Below, piece by piece: positions 10,572 to 64,000 of a DNA stretch of 64,000 bases; the stretch's first letter is position 1; the number at the start of each line of letters is the position of its first letter. The position numbers and the translations under genes were made by a program. The notes under the pieces are model-generated. The model worked only from the letters and a program-made list of their open reading frames with translations. It had not been told where the DNA came from and did no database searches. Origin of the DNA: Paraspadella gotoi (taxonomy: Eukaryota; Animalia; Chaetognatha); the NCBI GenBank assembly GCA_051294375.1, contig CM119264.1:22841826-22905825 (forward strand), given 5' to 3'.

Positions 10572-10607
<36 letters not shown>

Positions 10608-10827: not shown

Positions 10828-10858
<31 letters not shown>

Positions 10859-12598
10859 TAAACTCAAATTATACTCGAAATCAGGAGAAATAAATGTTTT
10901 CTGCATTGGATGAGACGGGTCATATTATTAAAAATATATTACAAAATCACAAAAATAATGAAAACGTCTTAAGTATTACTGAAATGTAACAACCATATAT
11001 AATATGACTGATGACGTAATTTTCGCAAATTCACATTAGACAAATCAAAACGGCGAAGAGATTGGGAAAGAGAGCCAGAAGTTTTAATCATTTTCTTATA
11101 AGCAATTCAGGTTCTCTCCTCTTTCTCCTCTCTCTCTCTTCTCTTCGTCTCGCCTTCCTTTCTCTCTTCCCTCTTCTCACGCCGGGCTTCCACGCGGTGA
11201 CCGGTTACGAGGGATCGGCGGGTCCACGTCACGGCGTCGCGCGGTTAGTCCAGTGACCAAAATCGCGTCACAGAAACGAACATCGTTAGTCAGCGTCCGT
11301 GTAACACGGGAAGGAGTAAGATGAGGAGGAAGAGCAGAATGACAACGAGACTGATTAATGGCAGAAATGACGCTGTTTATCGAAGGTCCGCAGATTCGGG
11401 AATCCCGATGCTCTTTTTTTTCTTCTTCCGGTAATCGGTCGACGCATCAGAGGCGATGATTTGAAATGAATCATCGATTCTGATTCGTCAAACGATTAAT
11501 ATTAACACAATATTAACACACAATATTTAACCAACATATATAACCAAATTGATACTTTTTGTGTTCACTTTCTAATCTCGTTGCTCGTAGTGTCATTGTC
11601 AATTAAAAAAAACATTTTATAACTTGAATAAAAAAAGTTTTTGGATTTAAGAGTTTTTCCCTAATTAGCTTTTCATTTCGCTCAAACACAACTTCATTTC
11701 CTCCATCATTACCCAAATTCCTTGTTCTTCTATTTTCCTTTTCCCTCCTTTCCTCCGTTCTCCTTTTCCACTTCCCTCTACACCTCCCTCTCTTCTCCTT
11801 TTATGACGCCCCCCACATCTTTTCTCCCGACGTGAAAGAGGGGATGAAGTCGATGGAGCGAAAGGGATGATATCCTTCGTTCGAGAGAAGAAACGTTTGC
11901 ATACATTGCAGTCAATTCGTCGAGCGAAGCCAAACGCCACCAATGGCGCGAGGCTTCGAATAAATTACAACAATCAATTGTGGGTCGTAACCCGGGAGAG
12001 GGAATTGGCCGTAAATCGCCCAAAATGTCCATCGATGTAATTTCAAATCGCATATTTTGATCATGCGCCGAAAAATGGAGAGCGAGGAAGGCATAAATTG
12101 CCGGAACTCGCTGACGCGAAGCCACGTCACCTCCGAGGAGAAGGGCAATTGCAATAAAATGCAGTCGTTCGACGAAGGTTTTTCGTTCTGGTCAACAACC
12201 GAGAACAAAGGGGGTGGGCAGGGTGAGAGAGGCGGGGGGGGGACTGGAAGAATGAAGGATGGTGGCTCGTTCAATGTCGGTGTACGCAAAGGGAAGTTGG
12301 ATTAATGAGTTTTTGAATCGTCATTTGAGGAGTTTGGAATAGATGACATTCTGTTCTCAAATATACTCGGAAATAGGAGAAATAAATGTTTCTGCATTGG
12401 ATGACGTCATATTATTAAAAATATTACAAAATCACAAAATAATGAAACGTCTTAGTAATTTTATGAAATTGGTACAACCAATATATATATATATGACTGA
12501 TGACGTAATTTTCGCAATTCACAATTAGACAAATCAAAAACGAAAAGAGATTGGGAAAAGAGCCAAAGTTTATAATCATTTTCTTATAAGCAATTAGG

Positions 12599-12634
<36 letters not shown>

Positions 12635-15460: not shown

Positions 15461-15506
<46 letters not shown>

Positions 15507-17243
15507 TGAGAACTCAAATTATACTCGAAAATAGGAGAAATAAATGTTTTCTGCATTGGATGACGGGTCATATTATTAAAAAATATTACAAAATCACAAA
15601 AAATGAACGTCTTAGTAATTTTACTGAAATGGTAACACAACCCATATATATATATTGACTGATGACGTAATTTTCCCGCAAATTCATGACAATATCAAAA
15701 CGAAAAGAGATTGGGAAAGAGAGCCAAAGTTTATAATCATTTTCTATAAGCAATTAGGTTTCTCTCTCTCTTTCTCCTCTCTCCTCTCTCTCTCTCTCGT
15801 CTTCGGCTTCCTTTCTCTCTTCCCTCTTCTCCACGCGCGGGCTTCCCGCGGTGACCGGTTACGAGGGATCGGCGGGTCACGTCACGGCCGTCGCGCGTTT
15901 AAGTCCACGTGACCAAAATCGCGTCAAACCAGAAACGAACTCGTTAGTCAGCGTCCGTCGTAAAACGGGAAGGAGTAAGATGAGGAGGAAGAGCAGAATG
16001 ACAACGAGACTGAATTAATGGCAGAAATGACGCTGTTTATCGAAGTCGAAGATTCGGGAATCCCGATGCTCTTTTTTTTCTTCTTCCGTAATCGGTCGAC
16101 GCATCAGAGGCGATGATTTGAAATGAACATCGATTCCTGATTCGTCAACGAACTTAATATTAACCACAATATTAACGCACAATATTTAACCACAATATAA
16201 CCACAATTGATCTAATTTTGGTTCACTTTCTAATCTCGTTGCTCGTAGTGTCATTGTTTCAAATTAAAAAAAACATTTTATAACTTGAAAAAAAAAAGTT
16301 TTTGGATTTAAAGTTTTTCCCTAATTCAGCTTTTCATTGCTCAAACACAAACTTCATTTTCCTCATCATTACCCAAATTCCTTGTTTTCTATTTCCTTTT
16401 CTCCTTTCCTCCGTTCTCCTTTCACTTCCTCACACCTCCCTCTCTTTCCTCCTTTTATACGCCCCCCCACATCTTTTTCTCCCGACCGTGAAAGAGGGCG
16501 ATGAAGTCGATGGAGCGAAAAGGGCATGATTCTTCGTTCGAGAGAAGAAACGTTTGCATAATTGCAGTCAATTCGTCGAGCGAAACCAAACCGCAAACCA
16601 ATGCGCGAGGCATTCGAATAAATTACAAACAATCAATTGTGGGTCGTAACCCGGGAGAAGGAATTGCGTAAATCGCCAAAAATGTCCATCGATGTAATTT
16701 AAATCGCATATTTGATCATTGCGCCGAAAAAATGGAGAGCAGGAAAGCATAAATTGCCGAAACATCGCTGACCGCGAAGCCACGTCCCTCCGAGGAGAAG
16801 GGAATTGCAATAAAATGCAGTCGTTCGACGAAGGTTTTCGATTCTGGTCAAAACCGAGACAAAGGGGGGAGAGTGAGAGAGGCGGGGGGGGGACTGGAAG
16901 AATGAAGGATGGTGGCTCGTTCAATGTCGAGTTATACTCAAAGTGCGAAAGTTGGATTTAATGAAAGTTTTTGAATCGTCATTTGAGGAGTTGGAAATAG
17001 ATGAATTCGTCAGAGAAAGAAGAAGAGGTAAGTAGGGGAAGAAAAAGCGGCAGAATTATAGGGTAAAGAGAAGTTTGTCCACAATTTTAAACATTCTGAA
17101 TGTTTTTAAACTTTTTTAATTCACAGTTCTGAATCTTGCAAACATTGTTAATTAGAATCCTCAAGCAATAACCAATTATTTTAAACAACGCTGTACCTGT
17201 CGATCTGGATTTTTGGATCTTGAAAAACCAGAGCCAATTTCAT
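9594..17243. repeat. Near-identical ~2-3 kb segment present in three noisy copies (~9594-12343, ~12356-14218, ~14262-17243)
   Basis: The same text recurs, e.g. GTCAGCGTCCGT..GAGTAAGATGAGG at ~11290, ~12775 and ~15950, and GATGAAGTCGATGGAGCGAAAGGG at ~11845, ~13325 and ~16500. Copies differ by scattered 1-bp indels and lie next to N-gaps. Confidence 0.85.
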
Positions 17244-19271
17244 CTCTGACGAATGGAATGTTTCAGTAAGCGAAGATCTTCCGTTCAAGGATTTTCCCCC
17301 CGGTTTGGATTTTTCCCGGCGGGAAGCGACAAGCGATACCATCCTCGTGATAAAAATTCTCTTATATGAAATCTTTTTCGGATCTAATTATCCACAAATG
17401 TTTCTTATATTAAACATGTTTTATATATAACAAAATTAAAATAAAATTAAATAAACAAAAATTATTAAACCGCACTCTTCACTATAAAATGGTGATAAAA
17501 TTAATATTTACCTTGATTATTTATTAATTAAATATCAAATTAGCTGCGTGTATTATCCGCGTTTCAAGTTGTTTGGTTACATATCTTTTATGTTTTGAAT
17601 ATAATAAATTACAGTACGTAATACTTAACACAACGTTTCATGGTTTTAATTTTAAACCTTCACCTTTATCCTTATCCTGCCCTTCTTCCTCCTCCTCCTC
17701 CTCCTCCTCCTCCTCCTCCTCCTCCTCTACCCCCGCATTTCGTCGTCATGATCCAATCAATGACGAAAGATACGAATCAATTAATCGATCGTTTTTCAGC
17801 AAATTAACTAATTTAATCGATTGTTATCGGGTTTCATTTAGTATACATTTGGATTAACTTCGATTAAAAAAAAACAGGTTCAAAGCTATTTTTAACTCGC
17901 GCCACTTGTGACGTCAAAGAAATGTCGTCGACTGTGAAGACGACGACGACGACGACAAAAACGACGTCTGAGACGACCACTACGACGACGACAACGACGA
18001 CGGCGACAGCATTCCAAGAAAAAAAAGGAAATGCAGAAAATTCTCTCGATTTCGGCGTCAGCATTTTTGTCGGCTCCAGTCGTCGTCGTCGTCGTCNNNN
18101 NNNNNNNNNNNNNNNNNNNNNNNNNNNNNNNNNNNNNNNNNNNNNNNNNNNNNNNNNNNNNNNNNNNNNNNNNNNNNNNNNNNNNNNNNNNNNNNNNNNN
18201 NNNNNNNNNNNNNNNNNNNNNNNNNNNNNNNNNNNNNNNNNNNNNNNNNNNNNNNNNNNNNNNNNNNNNNNNNNNNNNNNNNNNNNNNNNNNNNNNNNNN
18301 NNNNNNNNNNNNNNNNNNNNNNNNNNNNNNNNNNNNNNNNNNNNNNNNNNNNNNNNNNNNNNNNNNNNNNNNNNNNNNNNNNNNNNNNNNNNNNNNNNNN
18401 NNNNNNNNNNNNNNNNNNNNNNNNNNNNNNNNNNNNNNNNNNNNNNNNNNNNNNNNNNNNNNNNNNNNNNNNNNNNNNNNNNNNNNNNNNNNNNNNNNNN
18501 NNNNNNNNNNNNNNNNNNNNNNNNNNNNNNNNNNNNNNNNNNNNNNNNNNNNNNNNNNNNNNNNNNNNNNNNNNNNNNNNNNNNNNNNNNNNNNGTTGTG
18601 TCAGTCAGCTATTTCTGCTTACATAGCAACAACGACATTATTGTCATGTATCCACGATTCGTTTGCCATTGTTAACGGACTGTTGTTGGCTCTTTTTTTC
18701 ACCTAGGAATTTTCTTTCTTTCTTTCTTTCCTCTCTCTCGATTTCTTTCTGATCAGTATGTCATCAATCATATTAATGTTTTCCTCGATATAAATTTTTT
18801 CGTTGACTTTCATTCTGGCAAAAAAAAACAGAGCACGTTAGAATCAAATCATAGGCAGCCTAACGCATAACGATTTAAAATTTTCATGGAAAAAAGTACC
18901 AAAGGAAGGCAACAAACAACTAACAGAAAATAAATAATAACAATAATAATAATAAATAAATTTTAAAAAAAAAACCGTGGTAAAGTTAACAAAGTTGATA
19001 GAATATGGCAAAAGAACGTAAAAGATGTGATCAGTTTCCATAAAAACGCCTCTGATTGTAATCAAAGTCCAGGATTCCGCTTTTTTAACAACGAACGGGC
19101 TGTATATATAAAACTTCCTGGTGGCTTGTAACTTTCTAACTAAGTAAAAAATCGCCAAATAAAAAAGTCTTAAATGAAAATCAAAAATGGAACCTACTCC
19201 AATTAGATTATATTTATACATTTTACATATCCTTTGTGATACTATCTCTGCCATTAAAAAATCGCGCGCAA

Positions 19272-20237
19272 GCCGGCCGCCGGAACACCACGCCCCGATC
19301 TCCGTTGACGCTCCTCGAGGCGGCGCCACCAGTCGGCGTTGAATCCGATGCCGACGCCATCTGGTTTCCGGCAGAATTCTGTCCGGCGTCGACCTTCGTG
19401 AGAGGATTCGAGGTTTGGGTGGACAACGGGCGATTAGACGAAGAGGTGGGAAAAATCTTGTTTCGTATTGAAAGTAAATCTTTATCATTAATTCACTACT
19501 CTTACGTGAATTATTTTTAAATAAATCATTTTGTATTTATACTATCTATTTTTCATCTTCATTTTGATTCTAAATTCTTTAATGTATCTAAAATTAATTA
19601 TTTTCATGGTTTCTTTGTTTATTTACTTGTACAAATAAATTCACCTAAGATCAAAGTAGTTACGAACCATCTTCTTGAATTTAACATTATAATTTTTCAC
19701 CCCCACCAAAAAAACAAACAAAAGGGCATCACCAAGATTCGCATGGAGTGCGAAGGTGTGGGCAAGCCTCTACCTCTCTCCTCGGCCGCGCCCCCTTGCG
19801 CCACGCGATTCGTCGTCGATCGGAGGCGTCACGCGATGGCCCCGTCACGTCGTCGCTTCGTCGCGTCCGCCGGACGCGAGTCTCGACTCCGCTCCGCCTT
19901 CAAATCTTGTCCGAGCCCCCAACAGTTCGTCCACGGGTTTCGCGCAGCCTTCGAGGGTCCCAGCGTCGGGGCCTTCGAGCTGGACTTGGTCTGTGACGTG
20001 CCCTCGTGCCCGAAACGAGGCTGGGTCACCGAACTCGTCGACAAAGGGCTGTCGCGCTCCAGCTGCGGTGAAGAAGATTGCGAACGGAGGACCCCGTGGC
20101 TGCGGTGCCCTCGTGGCTCGGCGGTCTGCGGGCTGCAGGCGCGGGTGGAACCGCCCGTCGGGTTTTTGTACGACGATTCGGGAGTCAATGAGATTCGGAT
20201 GTTTTGTTGCGAATTTCCCGGATATCGGAGTATTTGA
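19272..20237 (+). CDS. Vitelline membrane outer layer protein 1 (VMO1)-like beta-prism protein, last two exons (~19272-19445 and 19725-20237); 5' exon(s) not identified
   Basis: A phase-0 GT-AG intron (19446-19724) joins WFPAEFCPASTFVRGFEVWVDNGRLDEE to GITKIRMEC. The C-terminus WLRCPRGSAVCGLQARVEPPVGFLYDDSGVNEIRMFCC matches the VMO1 repeat pattern W..CP...CG...VE....DD..(L/V)N.IR.FCC. Confidence 0.8.
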
Positions 20238-30815: not shown

Positions 30816-31424
30816 TAAGGCGTAGTGAAAGTTACATACGGAAATTCTAAAACTCAATTATGAACAACATACCATCAGTGAACATTAATTTGTAAAAAAA
30901 ATTAATTTTATGTTTTTTAATTTTCGCAGTAGACTATATTTATATATAGTACTATCCTTATAAAATCAAAATTTTCAAAATAGGCTTTTCTTAATTTTGA
31001 TTGCAGATTTAAATTCCTCGTCAAAAGTTGATATAAGAAAATATAAATCATTTTTAAAAATTCTTTTATTAAGTGGGTTAAAAATTAAAAAAACTATATT
31101 TAATATATAAAAAGTTAATTTTAACTTAAAATATAGCTTTTTTTAATTTTTGACCCACTTAATGAAGGAATTTTTTAAAAAGAGTTATATTTCTTTTTGT
31201 CAACTTTTTATGACGAATCTAAATCTGCAAAAAAATCTTAAAAAACACTGTTTTGAAATTTTAACATTTATTGGTTGAGTACTAGTATAAATATGGCTTA
31301 CTGCGTAAATTGTAAAATTTATTATGAATTTTTTTATTACATAAATGTTCATTAGTATAATGTTGTTCGTTCCTCACTTTAGAATTTTAATTAAAGGTAG
31401 ATTTAGAAATTTTACTACGCCTTA
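30816..31424. mobile_element. hAT-type palindromic MITE
   Basis: TIR TAAGGCGTAGT / ACTACGCCTTA with a perfect 8-bp TSD ATGTTTAG (30808-30815 and 31425-31432). The interior is a long imperfect inverted repeat centred near 31115. Confidence 0.85.
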
Positions 31425-32555: not shown

Positions 32556-35500
32556 TTACCACTGACGACAGTTTTCCTTGTTTCGCCGAAAGAGCGCGAT
32601 GGCGAATGACATGATGATGACGGATAACAATTCCATAGCAGAGAGAAAGTAAAACGCATCCCGATATGAATCTGATTGGAGAAGAGGTTTAAAAAAAAAA
32701 ATCAATTAATTTATTTTTGATTTTGTAATAATTTTAGAACCAAATTTTAGTTTTTATTTTGTCCACAGAGTTCGGACTTGAATCTTATCCCCCTAATTGA
32801 TCCTCCCCCACGCAAAATTGTTTTACAAAATTGTTTTATTTTTTATAGCAGAAGAATTGTTAAGGATTTTTCTATCTTTTGGATTGTATTTAGTTTTTCT
32901 ATGTCGAAAAACATTAGTATGGGAAACAACCGAAAACCAGTAGTTATGTTTGCTATAATTTCTATTAATTTTGATCTAAGGACATTATGCCCATGTCATG
33001 CAGTATCTAAATTCAATATGATGCTCGACTGTACTTGTAACCAAAATTATGTCACTCTCGCCCCATTATTTAATATAGAGTGGTACCAAGAATATAAAGA
33101 CTTTTTAATATTGGCTACACATCTTTGGAAGGGTTCTAAGAAAGGTATACATGATAAATTAGATGCTAAAATAAGCTAAACATAAAGTAAAATGACCAAT
33201 CAAATAATTGATAAAACGAAATTTTTGAGATATATCATTAAGTACAAATGATCGAGGTAATTAAAATTTTTTTCTATGGGGGTAAGTTGTAAGTCCGAAA
33301 ACTGTTCAAGTATTATGTGAGCTCAATGAGTCGCTCTCCAAAGTCTTAACTGACTTTTTGATGTATTTAATATGCAATCAAAGTTTGGTAATAGTAAGTA
33401 TACTAAACAAGGCCTATTTTGGATAAGCTTGTTAAAATTTTTTTTTTTTTAATTTCAAATCTCTGCAAGTTTTAACCTTTGGTATCCAGATGAAGTCCTA
33501 CGAGAGGCGGGAGAGCAATGGCTGCAATCCCTCCGCTAAACTGCAGCAACCCAATTGTTTTGTGAAATGATTTGGTTCCAAAAATGTCGCCGGGAACCGA
33601 GAAAAACAAAGGCTGAAACGCCCCAGATAGTATGCCTGAGGGAAGTAAGAAAATCTCAATAACTTTAATTTTTTAATAACTTTACATAAATTTTTAAATG
33701 AAATTGCTTTCGAAAAATCATATGTACATGCTCAAATTAACTCGTCATCTGAAAAAGATGCAATAAATTTTGCTTTAAATCTTTAAAAAAAAAAATCTAA
33801 CCTACAAAGCTGATGACGATAAGAATGTCCGTGAGGTTTTTGGTCAACGACAATACGGCGAGCGCGCCAGAAATACAGCAGGAAAAGAGGAGTAACAAGA
33901 TTGGCCCGCCCTCCTCGAATAAATGAAAGACTCCTATCAGGCCCATCCCTAGACAGCCGACAACCTCAAAGGCGGAAAAGACTGTCTGGATGAGCGCGAG
34001 GTCCAAAGAACTGGCGCCGTTATCGTGCCTGGCGAAGGGGCTCAGGTAGACCTGAATGGAGTTGTCCACAGCGCTGGAATGGTTTTTTGTTTTGTTTTGA
34101 GTTTTATGGCATAAAGATAAATAGGAGGTATAAATAATGATTAATGAGTGTATGGCAACGGAGGGACATGTGTGATGCGTGGGGTGTGAGGCATCTCCGG
34201 ACAGCTGGCGCTCAGGGCTTTGGACCTGCAGTGACCACCCCATGTCACTGGCGTGTTTATGCCGACACCATCACACTTAACCAGCGCGACCATGAGGGGA
34301 TTGAACCCGGAACTCATGGTTGGTGAACGAGTACTTAGCTGCCCAAGCCAATGGGACGAGCTGAGTTTCACCAAGCTATACGGGAGGCGAATTTAGGATT
34401 CGCCACAAGTGATTAAATTTAAAGTGTAATTGAATTATGGAAGAGAGTAAGCAAATGACAGAAGGAACGAGAAATAAATAAACAAATATTCTTACTTTAT
34501 TAAAGTGTGCGCTGTGAGATATAATAAGAAGACGCGATTTTTTAGGATAGAAAAGTCGAATATTTTCGTCAGACAACTTCTTTTACAAAATGGTATCGTT
34601 TTCTAGAAGAAAAATATTAAATTAAATTTGTAGTGTTATTAGTTTAAGCATATTATGAACAAAGACGAGTCGACTGTCTTGTTTTACCGACCAAAATTTT
34701 AGCGTTGGTTGCAGTTGCATCAGCAATTTCCATGGCTGAAGTTTTGCGGGACTTTTCTATCTTCGGATCTTCTTTTTCCACTTCGAGATCTTTCTCCTCT
34801 TTCTCTTTATAATCTTCTTTTCTCTCTTTGATTTCTATCCTCTCTTCTTTCTTCCCCACAACCTCTCTCGGTCGTCCCATCCAACCGAGGGCGACGATGT
34901 TAAAACCAAATCCTCCGAGGATAAGAAAGGCGCCTCGCCAGGCGAACTGATCCTTCAGCCAGGTGATGACAAAGGCCAGGCATGTTTTGCCCGCGATTCC
35001 GGCGAGAAACATCAAAGTGATGCACATGTGACGATGCTTTTCTTCAACCTAAGAAAGAACAAAAAATCTTTATAGTAAGTAAGTAACACAGAAACTTTAT
35101 ACTTATAGTAAGTAAGCAACACACTATGGTGGACTAAAATCCACCAACCGTTCATCAGCGGCCATTGGTGCCGGAGGCAAGTCATTCACCTCCCAACCCA
35201 AAGGTCCGGGGTTCTAGCCCGGTGGTCGCCTGGCAGTTAACAGGGACGGGGCGCTTAACCAGCCTGTAACTCGGTGTTACAGCCTGATCCGAAGCTCAGG
35301 GACTGCTTATATTGAACGGTTCTATCACTAACACATAATAATAATTACTGTCTCTTCAACACAAACTAACGAACAACCTCCCAACCGGTTACCCTTTGGG
35401 AAATGATGATTGCGCCAGTCAAAATAATTAATGACGCGCAGGAGAAAGGGAGAACGCCGCCCAGGAATATCAGCGCCGTCATAGACTTGGCCAAAGACGC

Positions 35501-35652
35501 CGCGACTAAACCGACGCCGAAAACGACACCGCCGACGATCGCCGCTGCCCAAGTAGGAAAACCGGCGTTGTAGGCGAATGTGGAGAAAATCGCCAGGATC
35601 GGGCCAAGGCCGCCGGCGACGCTGTGAACCACGGAAACGGCGCTGGACGATT
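32556..35652 (-). CDS. Divergent monocarboxylate transporter (SLC16/MCT-like MFS), paralog B; exons 35652-35393, 35048-34692, 34602-34496, 34073-33802, 33635-33477, 32671-32556; exon 1 not found in the expected orientation
   Basis: GT-AG junctions with compatible phases. MCT-type segments WLKDQFAWRGAFLILGGFGFNIVALGWMGRP, IFDFSILKNRVF and DIFGTKSFHKTIG..ALPPLVG..D..DSYRDAFY. Exon-by-exon similarity to paralog A, including an identical 260-nt second exon. Confidence 0.85.
32766..33304. mobile_element. Probable MITE in the last intron of MCT paralog B
   Basis: Imperfect ~27-bp TIR: CAGAGTTCGGACTTGAATCTTATCCCC versus reverse complement CAGTTTTCGGACTTACAACTTACCCC. No clear TSD. Confidence 0.45.
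34151..34407 (-). mobile_element. Solo LTR of twister/tRNA-like retroelement, family B
   Basis: Perfect 4-bp TSD AGTG (34147-34150, 34408-34411). Ends TGTGGC...GCCATA, 5' hairpin GGCGAAT-cctaa-ATTCGCC, A-box-like TGGCTTGGGCAG, B box GGTTCAATCCC, and a twister motif. Confidence 0.8.
34204..34285 (-). ncRNA. Twister ribozyme, type P5 (predicted cleavage U^A between 34259 and 34258)
   Basis: Minus strand: GCTGGT-t-AA-GTGT-GA-TGG-TGT.cg.GCA-TAA-ACAC-GCC-AGTGAC..GTCACT-G-CAGG-TCCAAAGC-CCTG-agc-GCCAGC. Stems P1-P5 and the pseudoknot CCA/TGG are all intact. Confidence 0.85.
35125..35358 (+). mobile_element. Solo LTR of twister/tRNA-like retroelement, family A
   Basis: Perfect 4-bp TSD ACAC (35121-35124, 35359-35362). 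Ends TATGG...TCTTCA, 5' hairpin GGTGGA-ctaaaa-TCCACC, tRNA-like block GCGGCCA..CTCCCAA..GGTTCTAGCCCGG-TGGTCGC. Near-identical to the LTRs at 52222 and 52640. Confidence 0.85.
35233..35306 (+). ncRNA. Twister ribozyme, type P5 (predicted cleavage 35256/35257)
   Basis: GCAGTT-AA-cAGG-GA-CGG-GGCGCT-TAA-CCA-GCC-TGTAAC-tcggt-GTTACA-G-CCTGA-TCCGAAGC-TCAGG-GACTGC, with pseudoknot CCG/CGG. P2 is short (2 bp). Confidence 0.7.
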
Positions 35653-35871
35653 CTTATTCACGAAATAAAGTGTATGAAGTATAAACAATAAAAAGTTACT
35701 TATTATAGTTTTTAAAAATGAAAATAATTTATTTATTTACAAAAATATGTTAAACAACTTTAAAAGTTTACTTCTCTGTCGCACATTAATTTTTTTGAAC
35801 AAGATTAAATTTTTAAATTAAATTTCTTAATTAAATTTCTTAATACTTTATTGTTTCTTAAGAATAAGATG

Positions 35872-38660
35872 TAAGCAATTTTTCAAAGTAAATAATCCTA
35901 AACCTCTTAAAATTGGGTCTAAAATATTTGTTTTTAAAAAACTTGCATGCTCTAATAATATTTTGAAATTTTTTTTAAAATTTTGCAACTTGTACCAGAG
36001 AGGTTTGTAAACTTCTGTACGAAATATTGTACTATTAAAAAAATTTTCTTTTACCATTTTTCAGTGCTGATTATTTTGATGGGGTCATTTTCAATGATGC
36101 ATAACTTCCTTATTTGGGAATATATATGGTTTTTAAATTTTATAATAAGTGGGCCTTGGGAGTCCTGCATGCATATAAATTTCAGTCATTTAAAAAAACT
36201 TTGGCACAGGCCAAAATTTTTTTACAAAATTCAATTGTCAATCCTGCTTCTAAAAAATATTAATGCAAATATTGTTATTCTTTGCTAAAATCAGTTAAAA
36301 CATATTCAAAATAACCCTAAAGCCAAAAATTTTTTTTCAATTTTTAAAAACTCATTTGCATATTGTTGCTTTATCAATTTTCATTTTTTACCTAAAGTAA
36401 TCCATTTTTTAATAATTTTTGGTTTGACGATAGTATATCATAAACCTTTTACAAATTATACATCAAACCTAATTTTAATAAATTTTAAATATTTTTAATA
36501 TTTTTTAATATTATTAAAATTATAATTTAATCAAAGCATTCTGCTAACTTTTTCAATGTGGCTCATTGAGAAAGAGTGACAACTCGAGGATTCTAAGAAT
36601 ATAATTTTTTTACAATTAAATGTCCCAAAGCTGAATAATTCTTTTTCAAATTGGTCAAAAATTTTTTTTAAAAAAAACCACTACTTTTTAAACCTTTATT
36701 AAAAAGCCGGCTATGATAGCTTTGCTTTAAAATATTGGCAATTAGGTCAAGAATTGTTCATATTTTTGGTATGACATTCCAGGAATAAAGAAGTATTATT
36801 AGTAGATTCCTCAATCGATTTTTAAATTTGGCAGAACATTTTACTTTTTTTACCAAGTTTTTAGAGTACGCTAAATGGTTTCTCTTGATTACACAAAAAT
36901 AGGAAATTGAAATAAGAAATTTTTATACCAATAGTTTGGTGTTATGTTTGATAATAGAAGAAAAAGACCTCGTTTAAAAAATTTGACTGGAACAGGGTAA
37001 CTAAGACTTACCAATGGCATCGTCCATGCCAATCGTTCTTTCAAATAATTTTTTTTATTTAATACATTTGAAAGGGAAAAAAAAGAAAAAAGTCGGAATG
37101 CTGGTTGCATGAAAGGTACAGATAATCTGGACATCGTTGATTGATAATCATGACCTTTATTGTCTTGGGTAATGGGGCAATAAATTAAAACCCAAAAATT
37201 CAATCATTAAGTCAGTCAATCAACCTTTTCAAAATAAGGCTGTTCGCGAAATTTTTTTCGTTCACTAAAAAGATTTTTTTCTTCCCTAAAAAATTTCGCC
37301 AGAACACACCTATTTGAAAAGGGGTTTGATTGATTGATTAATGATAAAATTTTTTAGGTATTTAACTGCCCCCATACCAAGACATAAAAGTCATGATTGT
37401 CAAATCACCAATGTCCAGATTATTTGTACCTTTCATGCCACTTACATCCGAATTTTTCTTTTTTTTTCCCTTTCAAATGTATTTAAATGGAAAAAAATTA
37501 TTTGAAAGAACGATTGCTTGAGACGATCCTAATGGTAAGCCTTAGTTACCCCTGTTTCCAGATAAAATTTTTAAACGAGATTTTTTTTCCCATTTATTTG
37601 AAAAACAACCCCAACTATTGGTACTATAATTTCTTATTTCTCAAATTTATTTTGTGTAATCGGAAAACGTTCAGCGACTGTAAAAAAAAAAAATTTTTTG
37701 GTAAAAAAGAGTAAAATTTCTGCCAATTTAAAATCGATGGAGGAATCTACTATAATATCTTTATTCCCTGACATGTCACTACACAAAATTGAACAATTCT
37801 TGACCTAATTGCCAAGTATGAAACAAGCTATCATAGCCGATTTTTTATAAAGGTTTAAAAGTAGTGTTTTTTTAATTTTGACACTTGAAAAGAATTTTAT
37901 CTCAGCTTTGGGACATTAAATTTGGCTTAAAAAATTATTATATTTAGAATCTCGAGTGCCCCTCTTTTCAATGATGCCACATTGAAAAAGTTAGCCAGAA
38001 TGCTTATTAAATTATAATTTTTAATTAATATTTAAAAATATTAAAAATATTTAAATTTATTAAAAATTAGGTTGTGGCATATTGTAAAGGTTTGATGATA
38101 CTACTATCGTCAAACCAAAAATTTAAAAAGGATTTACTTTTAGGTTAAAAAAATTGAAAAATTGATAAAAGCAACAATTATGCAAATAGTTTTTAAAATG
38201 TTGAAGAAAAATTTTTGCTTTAGGGTTATTTTGGAATATGTTTTAACTGATTCTATAGCAAGAATAACCAATATTTGCATTAATATTTTTTAGCAGGATT
38301 GACAATTGAATTTTGTTAAAAATTTGGCCTTGTGCCAAAAGTTTTTTAAATGATGAAATTTATATGCAATGCGACTACCCAAGCCCACGTTATTACATAA
38401 AATTTTTAAAACCATAATATTCACAAATAAGAGTTTTATGCATCATTAAAAAAATGACCATCAAAAATATCTAGCACTGATAAAAATGGTAAAAAATTTT
38501 TTATAGAACAATATTTCTACAGAAGTTTACAAACCCTCTTGAGTACAAGTTAGCAAAATTTAAGAAAAAATTTCAAAATCATATTAGAACTATTGCAAGT
38601 TTTTAAACAAATATTTTGACCAATTTTTAAGAGGTTAGGATATTTATTGAAAAATTGCTA
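35872..38660. repeat. Long inverted repeat / foldback (two ~1.37-kb AT-rich arms, centre ~37240-37310)
   Basis: Arms are reverse complements, e.g. AGCAATTTTTCAA at 35874 versus TTGAAAAATTGCT at 38648, and TTGACGATAGTA versus TACTATCGTCAAA. There are many indels between arms. Related sequence occurs at ~44160-44470. Confidence 0.85.
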
Positions 38661-39794: not shown

Positions 39795-41736
39795 CTATTT
39801 AAATTTCTTCACCATCTCCGGCAGTTTTCTTTGTTTCGTCGAAAGAGGGCGACGGCGAAACAAAAGAGAAGCGATGAGAAAAATCCGAGAGCGGCGAGGA
39901 AGTAAAAGGCGTCTCGATACGAATCTGTTTGATATAATTTTATTGATAAATATTTATATACGATCTCTTTATTTTAAGATTAGGAATTACGGAGAGTCAG
40001 ACCAAAAATTGTAGAGACCGAACCCCGCTATTTCTCACCTCTTTTGTCAAGATGAATTCCGATGAGGGGAGGAAGAGCGATGGACAAGATTCCGCCGCTG
40101 AACTGAAGAAACCCGATTGACTGTTGAAGACAATTCGTCCCAAAGATGTCGCCAGGAACAGAGAAAAACAAAGAGCGAAATGCGCCGGAAAAAAGCCCTG
40201 ATGAAGAAGGAAGAGTTACACTATCGTCAGTGTCGATTCGTCACGCTATCCAGTTGTATTTGTTACAATTAACTTACTATTTTGACTTAATTTACTAATA
40301 CTACCCCTTCAGTTATAATCAAACGTTTACCAACGAAGCTGATGACCGCCAGCATGCCCACAAGCTGCTTGGTCGCGGACAAGGAGACCGCTGCTCCAGA
40401 CAAGCCGCAGGCCACTAGAATCAGCAGAATCGGCCTCTCTTCCGCTAATCGAGGGTGAGTTCCAATCAGGCCCGTTGCCAGGCAACCGATCGCTTCGCAA
40501 GCGGAGTAAACCGACTGCAGCGAGGCCACTCGAATCGCCCGTTGCTCGTGCTCGGCGAAGCGATTAGGAAGACGGGGATGGATTTGTAGACGGCGCTGGA
40601 AAGATCGAGGGGGGGGGGTGATGAGGGGGGGAGTGGGTGACGTCGTGAGAAAAGAGTTGTCAACTCAAAATGTCCCGACAAGGTTCAAACTTCAAATTGT
40701 GTTCATTTAAAAAGAAAATCAAAGTATGGATATCTCGATCTTCATTTTACAATCTTTGACTTACAGTAAACAACAGTGAGCCACCATATAAATTTGATAT
40801 ACTCGGTTTTTGAAGATTGAAAAGTCAAAAACTGCGTTGCATCGAAGCTTTGAAAAAGGGGCCAAGTTTTTTTTAGAGGGAGAGTTCGTTTTTGATCTTT
40901 GAATGTCCGACGACGTTTCTGCGGCAACAGCTTCGACTGTTGCATTCCGAGCTGTTGGAAGGGATCCATGCTTATCACTTTGAGAAATTTCTTTCACTGC
41001 GTCATGATCCTTTTTCGAGTTCTTTTCTTTATTTTTTTTCACTTTTTTATTATCATTTGTCTGTTGTTGTCTTCTTTCTTCATTCTCTCTTTTCTCCGTT
41101 TCTCGTTCTCCTTTTTCTTCCTCTTCCTCCTTCCTCTTCCCCGTCTCCATCCTCGGTCTGCACATCCAACTCAGGGCGACGATGTTGAGCCCGAAGCCTC
41201 CGAGGATGAGGAAGGCGCCTCGCCAGGCGAACTCCTCTCTCAACCAGGTGACGGCGAAGGCCAGGCAGATTTTTCCCGCGAATCCGCCGAAGAGGAGCAG
41301 AGTCGTGCAGATGTGACGATAAGTCAGATGAACCTGAGGAGTGAAAATAGGAGACAAAATATAAAGAGTTGTGTAAACAAATGGGGAAAAAATAGATAGA
41401 GAAAGAATGAGATTTATAATTATAAAGTAGCCAGTTACTGTACTAAATAAAAAAGTAAAAAGTATTCCAAGATACATTCGGGATTAATTGAGGTGGATGA
41501 TAACTTTGAAGCTTTTCGTTTGAATAGAGTATAATTTCAGAAAAAGAAGGAAAGTTATCTCTATTGCCCATTGGGTCTAAAACTAATTTTTTCAATTTCG
41601 CATCCTTCATTTTTTAAAAATTATTTCACACCTCAACCGGTTTGAGTAAAGGTAAAATTAACATTTAAAGATCTAGTGGGAACAAGACTGCAGAAATTTA
41701 TGTATGTACTGTATTTAAAGGATTTTTGATTTGGTT

Positions 41737-41803
<67 letters not shown>

Positions 41804-42277
41804 TGACCCTTCGAGACACAATGATTGTCCCAGACAAAACTAGCAGAGGTGAGCAAGCGAATGGAAGAACGCCGCCCAAAAAAATAAGCGCCATAACAGA
41901 CTGTGCCAGCGACGCCGCCATTACACCGGCACCGAAAACGAAGCCAGCGATTATCGGCGCCATCCAGGGAGGAAAACCGGCGTTGAAGGCAAAGGCGACG
42001 AAGACGGCGAGACAAGCGCCGATTCCACCGGCGACGCTTTGGACGAGGGAGATGACGCTCGAAGATCCTGGATTATGGGATCATGTTTGTATTGTACATT
42101 TGCTTTACTTGATTACATTTTTTACTTCGACTGATTACCTTGGAACTCTGTTTTCCAGTCAAGAAAGAAAAGCGCGAGATTCAAGTTGAAGCCGTGAAAG
42201 ATGAACACGTTTGCGGCGAGGCAAAGAGCCAGCCGAAAATCTGGAGATTTGACGAAAGATAAGATGTGGAATTTCAT
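39795..42277 (-). CDS. Divergent monocarboxylate transporter (SLC16/MCT-like MFS), paralog A; exons 42277-42139, 42067-41808, 41333-40765, 40595-40331, 40197-40039, 39924-39795
   Basis: ATG at 42277, GT-AG introns with compatible phases, stop TAG at 39797-39795. Motifs WLREEFAWRGAFLILGGFGLNIVALSWMCRP, VFDFSIFKNRVY and LPPLIG..D...SYRDAFY. One apparent 1-nt frameshift near 40560, probably a sequencing error. Confidence 0.85.
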
Positions 42278-50400: not shown

Positions 50401-53400
50401 GGATTTCTCGGGGTTGGGAAAAGGGGGATAGTCGCGGGGAGGGAGTGGAGGAGGAGAAGACTGTGGGCAAGGAGTTGCCGAATCGGATGGTTGGAAGCGA
50501 TTGGGAAAATTTGGTGCGGGGGAAACGGTAATTTGTGGTCGATTGTGGTAAGTTGTGGAGTTTGAAGGAGACTTGGTGACTCTCATTGCAGGTTTTAATG
50601 TCTGGTCGAAAGTCGTGCAGGCTGGAATGGGGTGGGAGAGAGTTTTAATGGTTTGAAGGCGACTGTTGGAGGCTGTGGATGAATAATGGGGTTTAAAGTC
50701 GTTCGTGGCAGTTCTTGTGGGATTTTTTGACGGCTTTTCGGCGCGTGCGCAATCAACTCTGGGAGTCCGATTTATGGACGGATTTGAACAGTTTCGAAGT
50801 AAAAGGTGGGAAGGAAAAGGTTGTAAATTTGTCTTTGAAGAGGGTAAGTGACTGCGGTGATCTCCTGTGGTTTGTATGTTATCTGTCGTCTGTAGAGGGG
50901 TATGGCATTTGGCGTAAGCAAATAAAGGATTGAAAAATAAATAATTAAAAATACAAAATTCAACGTTGCGAATTGAGACTATTCAAGAATATATTCTTTT
51001 TTTCGCCTTTTTTCCTTTTTGATTATCCCGCTGTCTAAAAATAGAGAACAACAACAACAACAACAACAACAACAAAAATAAAACGAAAACCGTGAGCAAC
51101 TTTCCCCGCAGCATCGAACCTGCTTCGCCCTAACGTCATTGGCGGCGTCGATTGCGTTGCATATCGGAACAGGGGTTGGACCAACGTTGCATCTGGCAAA
51201 GGGAAGAAAGGGTAGGGAGGTGTAAAAATAGTCATTAGACTGTTTAAAATGAAAAAAAAAGGAAACAAAGGAAACTAGGAAATAAAAAATGAACTTAAAA
51301 AAAAAAAAGAAGTACCAATTCTTGGCGACTGAAACTCATGTGCGACTGAAACTAGGGTTATACATGCGGTTAAACTGGAAGTTAAATATAATAAATTAAT
51401 GTTTAAAAAAAGGGTTGCGGTCAGTGGTCACCTTTGAGAAGGCGGGTTGGATCCGACGGTCCTCGGAGGAAGAGGAGGAGGATTAAGTTGAATATAGGAG
51501 GATGAAGCGACCCTTCGAACCTGAATTATTCCGGACCTGAGGGCGAGTGCCGGGGCGTCATCTGTGGGCAGAATGTGGGTATTGAGTAAGGAGAAAAAGG
51601 AAATAAAACTATCGAGATAAGCTAGACAACATATTGGATAAAACTGCTTTTTTTGAAGTATAAGCGAAGAAAATATTATAAATATAAGCAGAAATTAGTG
51701 GCACGGGAAATGACTTCAGACATGTCGGTTATCGAGAAAGGAATGAAAGGAAGGGCGACATGCAGGTACGCACTTTTACGTTTAATTGTTATTAATGTGT
51801 ATTTGCGGAACACAATTTAAATTAGTATGTTGGAGTCTGTCTTTTTCAATTATTTTCCTCACAAAAGCAATAAAATCGTTGTGAACCAGAAAACCGCTTA
51901 TCATAGCCCTCTTCATTCCCAAATGGACAAGCGGCTGTGACTGTGAGTGATAGTCGACTTCGGGCGATATTTGAAATCCGTGTAGTATACAGTGCAGTAC
52001 ACAGTACAAACTACACATGTTTTATCCAAGATTAGGCAGATTTAATTGTCCGACTTTTATAAATCAAATACTTATGGTGAACTAAAATCCACCAACCGTT
52101 CATCAGAGGCCGTTGATGCCGGAGGCAAGTCATTCGCCTCCCAACCCAAAGGNNNNNNNNNNNNNNNNNNNNNNNNNAAAAACAGTTTAAAATGAAAAAA
52201 AAAGGAAACAAAGGAAACTAGAATGGTGGACTAAAATCCACCAACCGTTCATCAGCGGCCATTGGTGCTGGAGGCAGGTCATTCGCCTCCCAACCCAAAG
52301 GTCCGGGGTTCTAGCCCGGTGCCGCCTAGCAGTTAAGAGGGACGGGGCGCTTAACCCGCCTGTAACATGGTGTTACAGCCTGATCCAAAGCTCAGGGACT
52401 GCTTATATTGAACGGTTCTGTCATTAACACTTATCAATTAATATTGTCTCTTCATTGGTAGCCCGACTTCCGACATAACAGCAACAACAACACTTTCAGG
52501 CGACAGCCTCAACCTGGCGATGCACTTTCTGCCATCAATACATCAGGCGACATGCCTCAACTTGGTGACGCACTTTCCACCAACAACAACAATACACTGA
52601 AGAGACGCAACAGACTTCTCCCTATGGGAGGGGGGGATGTATGGTGGACTAAAATCCACCAACCGTTCATCAGCGGCTATTTGGTGCTGGAGGCAAGTCA
52701 TTCGCCTCCCAACCCAAAGGTCCGGGGTTCTAGCCCGGTGGCCGCCTAGCAGTTAAGAGGGACGGGGCGCTTAACCCGCCTGTAACATGGTGTTACAGCC
52801 TGATCCGAAGCTCAGGGACTGCTTATATTGAACGGTTCTGTCATTAACACTTATCAATAATTACTGTCTCTTCACGAGGAAATAAAAAAAGAACTTAAAA
52901 AAAAAAGAGTACCATTTCTTGGCAGTTGAAACTCATGTGCGACTGAAAACTAGGGTTATACATGCGGTTAAACTGGAAGTTAAATGTAATAAATTGATGT
53001 TTTAAAAAAAGTGTTGCGGTCAGTGGTCACCTTTGAGAAGGCGGGGGTTGGATCCGCCGGTCCTCGGAGGAAGAGGAGGAGGATTAAGTTGAATATGAGG
53101 AGGATGAAGCGACCCTTCGAACCTGAATTCTTCCGGACCTGAGGGCGAGTGCGGGGCTCATCTGTGGACAGAATGTGGGTATTGAGTAAGGAGAAAAAAG
53201 GAAATAAAACTATCGAGATAAGCTAGACAACATATTGGATAAAACTGCTTTTTTTGAAGTATAAGCGAAGAAAATATTATAAATATAAGCAAGAAATTAG
53301 TGGCACGGGAAATGACTTCAGACATGTCGGTTATCGAGAAAGGAATGGAAAGGAAGGGCGACATGCAGGTACGCACTTTTCGTTTAATTTTTTTTAATGT

Positions 53401-56400
53401 GTATTTGCGGGAACACAATTTAAATTAGTATGTTGGAGTCTGTCTTTTTCAATTATTTTCCTCACAAAAGCAATAAAATCGTGGTGGAACCAGAAAACCG
53501 CTTATCATAGCCCTCTTCAATCCCAAATGGACAAGCGGCTGTGACTGTGAGTGATAGTCGACTTAGGGCGATATTTGAAATCCGTGAGTACACAGTGCAG
53601 TACACAGTACAAACTACACATGTTTTATCCAAGATTAGGCAGATTTAATTGTCCGACTTTTATAAATCAAATACTTATGGTGAACTAAAATCCACCAACC
53701 GTTCATCAGAGGCCGTTGATGCCGGAGGCAAGTCATTCGCCTCCCAACCCAAAGGTCCAGGTTCTAGCCCGGTGGTCTAGATAGAACTGTTCTGTCACTA
53801 GCACATAACAATTATTATTGTCTCTTCATACTTATAATAGAAATGAAATACTAAAACTTGAATGGTTTGAATTCAAAGCTTAAATAAATGTTAAATTTAA
53901 TTACTTCATTTATTGTCCTGCAGAGTTGATAATCTCTTCCTCTGTGAAAATAAAACCGGTTTGTTTTTTCCATTTCTCGTCAACGAAATTGATAGAGATA
54001 TTCTATATTCTATTCTTTTGAGGCGATTGTTATTAAAATTAATTAATGCTCGTTGTACAGGTTTTTTAATTAGCCGGTGAAGGGAAGAATTAGTGTGTTA
54101 TCATCCATTTATCTAGTTAGTGAGAATATTTTGCCTTCTATCCTAAATTTTCTAATTTTCTACCACTATAATATTGATTTATAATTTGAGAGTATTAAAT
54201 TAGTAGAAGTCAAAATAAAAATCTAAAGCGAAACAGAGAGGCGGCTTCATACTTGAGTCGGCGACGCATTTGCTTTGATCCGTCAACCAACGACGCATCA
54301 ACTGCGAGGCCGTCGGGGATCGACCTCGACGGTTGAACTCGTCCACGACGGATTCCGATAGAGGGAGACGCGTCGTCGGCGTCGTTGTCGTTGTCGTCGA
54401 CGTCGTCGTTGGTGTCGTCGACATCGTCTTTGGCTGTTGCGATTGCGATGCAGAGCGCAAGTTGTAATTATTTATGGACTCAGCGATTGGAGAAGTTGCT
54501 GATTTTGGTGACAGTAGACCCTTGCCCGCTAGAACTTCTGACTGCGAGAGAGGGAATGCTTTTGAAGCTGTTTGCGGCGAATTACTTTGCAGATCAATCT
54601 CGTTGGTTAACGGCGAGGAAGCTGTCGTTGTTGGCGGCCGCATCGTCGTCGTCGTCAACGACGTCGTCGGCGTTACGCGTCGTTGGCGATTATCTAATTC
54701 TTCATCATGGTAGTCATTTGTGTAATTGTTGTCGAACTTCATGTTGTCATTTCTAAATTCGTCATATTCATTACAATTTTCTTTTTTATCCTTGTCCTCT
54801 TGCCACTCGTCCTGAATGTGCAAAGAGTCAGCGCTCGGAGAGCAAGGCGACGTTTCCATGGGAACTACAGGTGGCGCGGGAGATTCTGGCGTCGTGAGAC
54901 TGCGAAAGAATGCCGCTTCCGGAGCGCCGGTGTCATCTCGTTGATACTGAAATTGCGGCGATGCCGTCTCATCAGTTTCTGGCGACGAGACGAAGGCAGG
55001 GCCGTCGGGCGCAGAGTTGCCGTCGACGTCGTTGTCGTCGTCGTCGTTACTTTGCCGATCTTCATGCCAACCTTTGAGGCGGCGATCGAAGACGAGAAAA
55101 AAGAAGTAGATAAAAAGCGGAAAACGAAAGGGAATGAGGAAAAAAAAGGTCATGCATCTAAGAAACCGTCAATTACGCTTTCAAAGAGAAAAAAGGAAAC
55201 GCGCAACACGACTTGATTTTTAAAATGTTTTGGGGTGTTTTTCCCAACTTTTGTTTCGTTGTCCTGAATTCCCTCCTTGCTTTCTTTCTTCCTCCATTTC
55301 AATTAGTACGACCCTTTCTCCCCCCCTTCAGCTTCTCTCTCCCCCTTCTGTCGTCCCCCATCCCCTCACCCTCCCACTCTCACCTTCTCCAGTCTCCGCC
55401 TCGACCGGCTCCTCGATCGCAATCTCCCTCAAGACGACCGTCTCCGCGGAGAACGTGGAGCATCCCGAGAGGCTTGAAAGACGCTTAAGCTCGTGGGAGT
55501 CGGTCCTGGCGTAGCAGCGCAGCAGCGGGGCCGGGGGCAGCAGCGCCGGGGAAAGCGGCGATGGGGACGGAGCGGGAGGCTGAGGCGTCGGACCATGCGG
55601 GACGGCGTCGCTCGATATTAAGTCGACCGCGTCCGTATTAGATTCTTTGGTTAAAACTGATTGTTCGCTCGTTCGTTCGCTAGTTTGTTCGTTCGTTGGT
55701 TTATCTATGCTATCGAGGGAATCGGTTTCGTCAGACGACGGAGACGAAATGCGAACCGAAGGCAAAGAGGTGGAGGAGACCGACGTGAGAGGAAGCGTCG
55801 TCGGCGTTTGGGATTCGTTTCGCAGATCGCTTCCGATTTCTCTTAGGGTTTCACCCAGAGATTCATTGAAGGGTTCAGTTCGGGGTTCCGTTTGGAAATT
55901 AAGCGGGAGTTCGGTTCGGGATTCAGCCTTTGAAATTGACGGAGCGATCGAGTCTTGAGGCGACCGCGGCTTCGTCGTTGGCGAGGTCTCCTTCGGGCGA
56001 CGAGTCGAATGATTAAGCGGATCGAATATGACGAGCGAGTCGGAAGCCTTGTCAGCTGGCGCTAACGTGGCGGGGCTAGGCCGGGAGGGGCATGCCGCGA
56101 CGGCCTCCACATGCCGATCTTGTTCGGCCGATCGCCCCATAAGTCTCAATTCTTCCGCATCGAATCCGTCGTCAGAAATGAAATCTCCGCAACAGAATTC
56201 TCCGCTTGTGGTGACCCACGCCCGGCTCGTGGTTCCCCATTCCCCGCTTTGGCTGAGTGAATCGTCTGAAGAAGACGTAGGTTGATCGCGAGGGACTGGA
56301 TGTCGGGAGAAAATCGAGGGAAAAAGGATGGAACAAATATATTTTTTTAGGTTTACAAAGTAGCACATAAAACGTACTATGAGATATCACACGATCAAGT

Positions 56401-59261: not shown

Positions 59262-60208
59262 CGTCTATTTACTATTTTGTTATTATGAAATTGGTACAAC
59301 CAATATAAAAATTATCCATTCATTTAATAAATAAGCTATTTTGCCCCTGACTTTGGACAGGCTTTGGTGGTTTAAGGCCTCCATCACTCTTACAAGATAA
59401 TTACATAGCAGGTCCCTGCAAGCTTTCAATCAAGACTCTCTCACAGTCCTGTTTATTCACTCCCAGAGTACCTGGCTTCCCTATCAATGAAGTGGAAAAT
59501 ATTTCAAAGAATGTTTCAATTGTATGAAAAGACCACTCCCTTTATTTCAGAAAAAAAATTAGGAATTTTCAACTTTGACTTTTCTTCACTTTTCACTTCA
59601 CTTTTCACTTTTCACTTTTCACTTTTCACTTCACTTTTCACTTTTCACTTCCCTTCTTCTCACTTCGGTCATCCGAGGATTGAATTGATTTGATTGATCA
59701 CAAGATCTAATAGAAGAAGAAATATAAAAAAAAAAAAAAGAAGAAAAAAGATACTAAAGAAAAGGACCCGAACAAATATTTTAAGCTTCTTACACTCGAT
59801 CAAAAACGGGACCTCGATTTCTTTTTGTCGCTTCAGATTTTCCGGAATTTCTTTTTTTTTATATTGAGCCGACGAAAACTACGAAACATCGACGCGTCGA
59901 AACGAATTCAAAAACCGAATTAAGTCAGTTTCGAACCCATAAAATTTCCGGTTTCCTCGACTCTTTTAAATAAAGAAAAGACACGCCTTTAAAAGTAAAC
60001 AGAAAATTAACAACTGTATTGCTCCACTTTTAAACCAAGAAAAAAAAAAGATGTAATGCCACGCAAACGCTTAAAAATCATTACGTAATATGTGGCATTG
60101 TGATAGATGATTATATGTAAATTTTCATGACAAATACTATATCCAAACCTCAGTTTTATTTTTAATTTCTTTTTCGATTCCATTGAGCAGAAAGTTTCCT
60201 TCCTCGAA

Positions 60209-64000
<3,792 letters not shown>

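Follow-up and report, generated by a model that had tools for sequence, protein, structure and literature searches.

Miniature retrotransposons with terminal repeats (TRIMs) whose long terminal repeats (LTRs) are transfer RNA (tRNA)-like are known from animals as Helenus, or TRIMp3, and leave a 4-bp duplication of the target site (TSD) in dependence on gypsy elements (Kojima 2024; PMC10886601). Ribozyme-bearing LTR retroelements have been described mainly from plants, with hammerheads only (PMC4918200), and the one role described in the literature consulted for the twister ribozyme in retroelements is at the 5′ end of long interspersed elements (LINEs; PMC8501958). Further papers on known relatives are PMC7761336, PMC6765202 and PMC10085705. 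The subject of the present analysis is an element at 52222-52874 of a 64,000-nt stretch from the chaetognath Paraspadella gotoi (GenBank assembly GCA_051294375.1, contig CM119264.1, positions 22,841,826 to 22,905,825; the window). It may be regarded as Helenus crossed with an LTR retrozyme: in it a motif that matches the twister in sequence and structure lies within the LTR, and by this two known kinds of mobile element are joined.

The element is 653 bp long and non-coding, with LTRs of 233 and 235 bp flanking a 185-bp interior. The LTR pair (52222-52454 and 52640-52874) is 96.6% identical over 234 nt, being 7 substitutions and 2 indels apart. Its parts, and the site from which it is absent, are as follows.

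51275..51278, + strand: empty pre-insertion site, where CTAG stands once; it belongs to the other copy of the overlap of ~880 bp on the two sides of a 25-N gap
52218..52221, + strand: left TSD, CTAG (a single CTAG at the empty site)
52222..52454, + strand: 5′ LTR, 233 bp; first base A, T in other copies
52224..52243, + strand: terminal hairpin, U3-like and upstream of the tRNA-like block; the hairpin is folded in the 3′ LTR and invariant in the 3 twister-bearing copies
52455..52639, + strand: interior, 185 bp, non-coding; it contains two tandem units of ~50 nt, and a stem in it pairs with the end of the LTR
52456..52467, + strand: primer-binding site (PBS); window form TGGTAGC, majority form with an extra G behind 52459 and tRNA-Trp-like
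52626..52637, + strand: polypurine tract (PPT), 12 purines, 2 nt ahead of the 3′ LTR
52640..52874, + strand: 3′ LTR, 235 bp; fold z -3.3
52875..52878, + strand: right TSD, CGAG, 1 mismatch to CTAG

With direct repeats, a PPT of 12 purines, the CTAG/CGAG pair and the empty site all recovered, the LTR-PBS-PPT-TSD layout that an earlier note had read from the sequence alone stands. A PPT-like tract was met by chance in 2 of 5,000 shuffles. The termini of the family, TATGG...TTCA, and its 4-bp TSD were fixed by comparing the copies in the window, where three such duplications are present (ACAC/ACAC, TACT/TACT and CTAG/CGAG, the last with its empty site), and the TSDs of the family are of the integrase type. 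An alternative with a 5-bp TSD and an LTR starting at ATGG suits the copy at 53676 and is contradicted by that at 35125. The end of the LTR together with the start of the PBS (52446-52457) is predicted to pair with 52593-52605, shortly before the PPT, by which the interior would be closed as one domain. A Pfam scan of the 95-aa open reading frame (ORF) within the element gave no match. The element departs from short interspersed elements (SINEs) and non-LTR retrozymes, which are without LTR, PBS and PPT, have tandem units or a poly(A) tail and a long TSD. It is very probably a TRIM of Helenus layout.

What of the primer? Contigs of 4 of 13 listed sequencing runs (X numbers below) were aligned to the element stretch as a survey of the family, X9 being used solely as a source of sequence variants. 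The window form of the PBS had suggested the end of initiator tRNA-Met. Behind 52459 an extra G is present in 24,893 of 25,950 of the depth in X1, in 1,432 of 1,479 in X9 and in the single X10 contig there, i.e. in about 96% of depth, and since it dominates the other copies the initiator-Met reading is probably an accident of the window copy, explained by one-base loss, and cannot be kept. With the extra G the PBS is TGGTGAGCCCGAC, 12 of its 13 bases being like the tRNA-Trp PBS of Gypsy-32_NVi and Helenus-2_SyJa (Helenus Fig S2). The primer is probably tRNA-Trp, the likeness being judged against published PBS sequences.

Each LTR has a tRNA-like block and, directly after it, the twister-like motif.

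52254..52328, + strand: tRNA-like block of the 5′ LTR, with a degenerate A box and B box at 52307-52317; predicted RNA polymerase III (Pol III) promoter
52329..52402, + strand: twister-P5-like motif of the 5′ LTR, with its cut predicted at 52352/52353 and a mismatch in T1 at 52387 (A)
52672..52748, + strand: tRNA-like block of the 3′ LTR, with B box at 52726-52736, T-arm-like hairpin and 7-bp acceptor-like stem
52749..52822, + strand: twister-P5-like motif of the 3′ LTR; predicted cut 52772/3

The B box, of the GGTTC type, matches at 10 of 11 positions. A tRNA-like test, written post hoc, was passed by two of four LTR copies and by none of 5,000 LTR shuffles; the block of the 5′ LTR, with one G missing from its acceptor-like stem, fails it. 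Of the Pol III block that had been claimed for each LTR, then, the B box, T-arm-like hairpin and 7-bp stem hold, while the A box is degenerate and the 5′ copy falls short. Pol III transcription of the element is likely on these features, and the same has likewise been inferred for Helenus (PMC10886601).

The order of parts in the motif is that of the type-P5 twister (RF02684): P5-P2-GA-T1-linker-UAA-P2-GC-P4-L4. In the 3′ LTR, P5 begins at 52749, followed by P2 at 52759-60, GA at 52761-62, T1 at 52763-65, a self-complementary linker at 52766-71, U^AA at 52772-74, T2 at 52778-79, P3 at 52780-98 and P4/L4 at 52799-816. Put in letters, the motif runs P5, a 2-bp P2, GA, T1 CGG, linker GGCGCU, U^AA, GC, a 7-bp P3, a 5-bp P4 and the loop UCCGAAGC. 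Mapping of the motif bore out the cuts at 52352/3 and 52772/3 that had been placed earlier; these predicted sites lie 420 nt apart and bound the unit 52353-52772. The conserved bases of L1 (U^AA, GA) and L4 (AAGC) are kept in all three twister-bearing copies, and the pseudoknots, T1 of 3 bp and T2 of 2 bp, are complementary in two of the three, the 5′ LTR having a single T1 mismatch. In large-scale assays twisters tolerate defects of P1, P2 and P4, not changes of pseudoknot or catalytic bases (PMC11662667; PMC5113685). T1 of the motif has a compensatory G-C to C-G swap in comparison with the consensus, and the same GACGG/TCCGAAGC swap is present in three natural twisters above the Rfam gathering score (L028, L029 and L062). 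These three come from viral contigs, as do L038 and L051, which also have the swap and score as twister-P1 below the gathering threshold. They belong to the positive controls from such contigs: in a first set 9 of 9 loci pass the Rfam twister-P5 threshold (gathering score of RF02684, 37.6 bits), and in a second, of 12 loci chosen by eye from 112 + 5 pattern matches, four pass, three of them with the T1 swap.

A type-P5 descriptor matches the window at 52761-52816 and 35245-35300 only, that is in two of the three LTR copies; its background was 1 in 20,000 LTR shuffles and 1 site in 30 window shuffles, and of the control loci it recovers 12 of 15, among them 10 of the 13 Rfam-positive P5 ones. 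The P3 sequence is like the Rfam twister-P1 consensus and the P3 of Schistosoma mansoni, and a P3 pattern, again post hoc, has three matches in the window and none in 100 shuffles. Four of the five differences among the three window copies within the motif are at unpaired bases, and twister positions figure in two of 19 LTR variant rows among those listed, both at one P3-loop base. With a common T>C variant, P3 (52780-52798; also 52360-52378) becomes a 9-bp inverted repeat without mismatch about a single central base, and could therefore also pair between copies. A type-P1 reading inside one LTR was abandoned, no downstream P2/T1 partner being seen by eye; Rfam has no hammerhead match in the element. 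In a viral scan the P3-L4 motif had 0 matches, and a search for canonical twisters with a short linker gave 5 loci, none of them a short-linker twister by eye. From its sequence we would expect the twister of the element to be active with reasonable, though by no means full, confidence.

The linker is where the motif is most out of the ordinary. It is 5 nt long by script definition, against 15-29 nt in the control matches. P1 is reduced to the self-complementary GGCGCU, and in one copy nothing more than a G.U pair can therefore close, with GCGC as its loop: the P1 stem is of 1 bp in the monomer and of 6 bp between two copies, with P4 of 5 bp. The swapped dimer is predicted at -52.3 kcal/mol, compared to -40.6 for two monomer twister folds, and with the sequence of the solo copy, at -54.5 kcal/mol, it is better than both alternatives. 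The axolotl hammerhead, whose helix III is 1 bp long and whose tetraloop is palindromic, performs better in dimeric form (PMC7229834). A new feature is the reduction of P1 to a self-complementary 6-mer, by which two LTR copies could form complete ribozymes. Going by these modelled folds, cleavage might depend on two copies, a proposition which we would put at slightly worse than evens.

Other copies in the window permit the family to be followed a little further.

35125..35358, + strand: solo LTR, its twister core intact and its TSD (ACAC) perfect; it lies between exons of an opposite-strand MFS transporter gene
52073..52152, + strand: probable allelic counterpart of the 53676 solo LTR, truncated by the assembly gap
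53676..53828, + strand: solo LTR from which the P5-closed twister domain, of about 80 nt, is missing entirely; its TSD, TACT, is perfect

The overlap that reveals the empty site consists of 51274-52152 and 52874-53755, ~880 bp at 96% identity on the two sides of the 25-N gap, with the element in the right-hand copy; a gap at 1672 is flanked by a similar overlap. Over 874 bp the two copies differ by 17 substitutions and 15 indels, and with so many indels single-base oddities of the element copy may therefore be errors. One X1 contig has the letters of the empty copy at 8 of 8 substitution sites listed for the contig up to 53100, and its indels besides. The two copies are probably two unmerged haplotypes between which the element insertion is polymorphic. 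The 53676 solo LTR, because it is present in both haplotype copies, is older than the full insertion; lacking the twister, it may be a deletion derivative or a pre-capture ancestor, and single X1 contigs skip the twister domain similarly.

The element is a repeated family with many insertions. In X1, 10,903 contigs were aligned to the stretch, with a summed depth, which is not a copy number, of 4e4 to 1e6 within the element and about 29 in the flank. X1 contigs with loose ends and unlike flanks number 93 at 52223, 56 at 52640, 123 at 52874 and 46 at 52875. The LTR-PBS junction is crossed by contigs in X9 and X10 (in X10, a run labelled with another organism, by 2 contigs only), and no contig among the pieces listed spans the whole element. 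X10 and a biofilm metagenome, X11, hold short family contigs that are 88-95% alike, from a relative or by contamination. A 21-nt family motif taken to a metagenome scan gave 4 loci, all one unrelated GC-rich sequence.

The likeness to Helenus is close (all comparisons here are with PMC10886601). Both are TRIMs of <1.3 kb with a GGTTC B box in both LTRs, a PBS, a PPT, a 4-bp TSD and solo LTRs; in both the gypsy partner is inferred, and the Trp PBS is as in Helenus-2_SyJa. Since Helenus already provides TRIMs with tRNA-like LTRs, the tRNA-like Pol III TRIM layout is not a new class, as the earlier note had supposed it to be. The element differs in having the twister-like motif and no T-run behind the tRNA-like block, and a degenerate A box with an extra hairpin; its LTR starts with TATGG, those of Helenus, among the ones listed, mostly with TGT and a few with TAT. 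Five family motifs sought in the Helenus supplement had no close match at LTR or PBS positions, and four L4 8-mers gave one match, in an internal region, line breaks there being able to hide matches. In the available text of the Helenus paper the word twister is absent and ribozyme occurs in a reference only.

Two of the published Helenus consensus sequences call for a second look. Helenus-2_SyJa-LTR and Helenus-2_SyUm-LTR, from Synergus wasps (Data S1 of PMC10886601), contain what by eye is a type III hammerhead, on which the paper does not remark. It follows the tRNA-like block directly and has a CTGATGA + GAAA core, three helices, and loops 1 and 2 that are complementary. As in the chaetognath element the order is tRNA-like block, ribozyme motif and LTR end with no T-run between, with a Trp PBS and a 4-bp TSD; unlike it, Synergus Helenus-2 has the type III hammerhead, a 277-bp LTR and an ~485-bp interior. 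These are probably, to judge by their published sequences, animal LTR retrozymes already in Repbase.

Plant LTR retrozymes share with the element a non-coding LTR-PBS-PPT-LTR arrangement and a 4-bp TSD and, as is proposed for it, gypsy-type mobilisation and a ribozyme in each LTR, the two marking off a unit-length RNA; they differ in their type III hammerhead, Met PBS and LTRs of ~350 bp, and their highly paired circles of 600-1000 nt are shown experimentally, that of the element being predicted (PMC4918200). No tRNA-like promoter is described for them in the available part of that paper. Because it is without a hammerhead the element is by definition not an LTR retrozyme; it is likely to work like one. 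With the non-LTR retrozymes of animals it has in common the animal host and, by prediction, a weak helix with palindromic tetraloop rescued by the dimer and circularisation by RtcB, unlike them in that they are tandem type I hammerheads without LTR, PBS or PPT and Penelope-linked (PMC7229834; bioRxiv 10.64898/2026.07.22.740005). The T-variants of Perere-3 in S. mansoni have a P3 like that of the element, but are type-P1, and a non-LTR element carries them at its 5′ end (PMC8501958). Cassandra and Ajax TRIMs also have a small-RNA-derived Pol III promoter in their LTRs; theirs, unlike the one predicted for the element, is derived from 5S RNA, and no ribozyme is reported for them in the available text (PMC10886601). 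In the literature searched, with most subscription journals, Repbase and Dfam outside its coverage, there was no twister in an LTR element, no ribozyme in Helenus and no natural two-copy twister, so that the combination of twister and LTR, earlier thought undescribed, was not found described there either. The family may be catalogued in Repbase or Dfam with no ribozyme noted.

How might such an element multiply? In the scheme we propose, and to which we give an even chance, a Pol III TRIM is cut by its twisters into a 420-nt unit, which is closed to a circle and, with tRNA-Trp as the probable primer, copied by an element of gypsy type. Pol III would start near 52254 in the tRNA-like block and read through both LTRs, and in the two-LTR transcript the two linkers would form a shared 6-bp P1 to give two complete cores, the inner one a twister of type P1 whose P5 loop is the body of the element. 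Double cleavage would release a 420-nt unit with 5′-OH and cyclic-phosphate ends, to be ligated by RtcB as in animal retrozymes, which that enzyme circularises (PMC7229834); cleavage by a lone twister, in the circle or in the transcript of a solo LTR, would be poor. A gypsy-type reverse transcriptase primed by tRNA-Trp would then copy round the circle, rebuilding both LTRs, including the promoter lost at the first cut. In a SINE a ribozyme behind the tRNA head would cause truncation, cutting off the promoter (PMC5786205); an element with two LTRs would escape this, its 3′ copy restoring the promoter. Mobilisation by a gypsy-type element fits the 4-bp TSD of animal Helenus. As to a unit-length or circular route as such, the balance seems to us level.

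A number of observations weigh against this scheme. On the side of transcription, the A box reads TGGTG and then YGG where TRGCY...YGG is expected, ARAGORN and Rfam find no tRNA in the element stretch, and the absence of TTTT had to be dropped as Pol III evidence, there being no four-T run in the element, yet with P 0.45. On the side of mobilisation, neither a retroelement domain nor an autonomous partner was found by Pfam among 128 window ORFs (the window has 247 non-repetitive ORFs of >=65 aa, and the 128 were chosen out of the longest 150). As for the ribozyme, the Rfam twister-P5 model, with which it was to be checked, gives no match at gathering score nor at E<=10, on stretches of 2.1 kb and 101 nt; beside type-P5 twisters the 5-nt linker (15-29 nt in theirs), the 2-bp P2 and the want of an Rfam score set the element apart. 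The copy in the 5′ LTR has a broken T1 pair and fails the descriptor, and a type-P5 twister in each LTR can be upheld for catalytic bases, pseudoknots and U^A sites, less this pair. P2 has 2 pairs only, and a competing hairpin in which the U^A site is buried is the predicted minimum-energy fold (-29.1 kcal/mol, that of the twister being -20.3, with pseudoknots left out of the score). Two such hairpins, at -58.2 kcal/mol, beat the swapped dimer; a self-complementary 6-mer is expected by chance in 2-6% of cases; and since P1 is dispensable in other twisters (PMC5408937) a dimer may be unnecessary. The shuffle figures are optimistic because the descriptors were written after hand mapping. Twister-less LTRs exist, both at 53676 and as skips in X1 contigs. 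The 420-nt unit, lastly, is 52% paired (fold z -2.6), compared to >70% for retrozyme RNAs (PMC4918200).

Several of these points would follow naturally if the twister segment were a dead or near-dead passenger, captured with a fragment of a SINE or RTE LINE by an otherwise ordinary Helenus TRIM: the silence of Rfam, the short P2 and the competing hairpin, and the twister-less solo LTRs with their clean TSDs. A source for such cargo is to hand, twister variants being present at the 5′ ends of RTE LINEs (PMC8501958) and RTE 5′ parts being taken in by SINEs (PMC5786205). Against it, catalytic bases and both pseudoknots are intact in two of three copies, with a compensatory T1 swap known from natural twisters, and differences between copies are mostly on unpaired bases; the P5 permutation is unlike the type-P1 form at RTE ends, and summed depth over the twister bins is similar to that over the rest of the LTR. 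We consider a passenger improbable, if well worth keeping in mind. The twister may instead be active mainly as a 3′-end former that replaces the T-run terminator, with linear RNA transposing like Helenus or Cassandra and transcripts that escape the 5′ cut keeping ~100 nt of terminal redundancy (from the tRNA-like block to the cut site). Among the described animal Helenus LTRs that were compared, most have a T-run right after the tRNA-like block (PMC10886601) where the twister stands here, only the 3′ site of the element copy has an intact T1, and the weak pairing of the 420-nt unit is in keeping with such a role. Yet an efficient twister would cut both sites, the swapped fold forms both together, and, because both LTRs are made from one template, a broken 5′ copy could not be inherited as a rule; a 3′-end former strikes us as unlikely. 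That there is no LTR element, and that two SINE-like copies 420 bp apart or an assembly artefact of a gap-filled region have been mistaken for one, has in its favour a position 45 bp from the 25-N gap in indel-rich sequence, the TSD mismatch, LTRs starting with TA and not TG, and the fact that no listed contig piece spans the whole stretch. PBS and PPT exactly at the LTR borders, three 4-bp TSDs with an empty site and no poly(A) tail, an X1 interior depth thousands of times that of the flank, and the X9 and X10 contigs across the LTR-PBS junction leave very little room for it.

Some other features of the window may be recorded. On the minus strand at 33472-35657 and 40028-42080 are two tandem diverged MFS transporter genes with weak MFS_1 matches, the first of which holds the solo LTR, and 60131-64000 holds exons of an NADPH oxidase like NOX2, the N-terminal one being long and of low complexity. 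One exon bounded by introns has a match to human NOX2 (E 2.5e-6); by this evidence the host is an intron-bearing eukaryote and probably an animal, though Atlas clusters include fungi too and homolog searches with two exons gave nothing. Long imperfect palindromes at 35874-38659 and 30842-31387, with self-identities of 81% and 74%, are possibly foldback elements or like miniature inverted-repeat transposable elements. Tandem repeats of 1.4-2.7 kb and 84-91% identity occupy 9595-17281, broken by gaps, their ORFs being without Pfam match, and a diverged VOMI-domain exon (E 4e-9) lies at 19743-20234, with no homologs in a word-indexed search.

Returning to the scheme of a Pol III TRIM cut into circles by its twisters, one can ask how far it might extend. 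Tentatively, and knowing that the odds are somewhat against so broad a claim, we suggest that animals have LTR retrozymes of their own: Pol III TRIMs in which ribozymes were acquired repeatedly, the twister of the present element and the hammerhead of Synergus Helenus-2 being separate cases, with a two-copy twister and an abundant 420-nt circle as transposition intermediate. Engineered systems in which tandem twisters produce circular RNA use a Pol III promoter and RtcB, and if the suggestion is true the element would be a natural version of them; expression of circular RNA from tandem twisters is mentioned in PMC7229834. A partner-dependent twister would represent a fold state new in nature, and offer a simple means of keeping circles and solo-LTR transcripts uncut. 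As the element is short, high-copy and apparently polymorphic, cleavage and circle are directly testable. LTR retrozymes would at the same time be linked to Helenus, a family in which a hidden hammerhead seems to be present in at least two of the published consensus sequences. If the motif cleaves, twister would have a second role in retroelements, and LTR retrozymes would be extended to animals.

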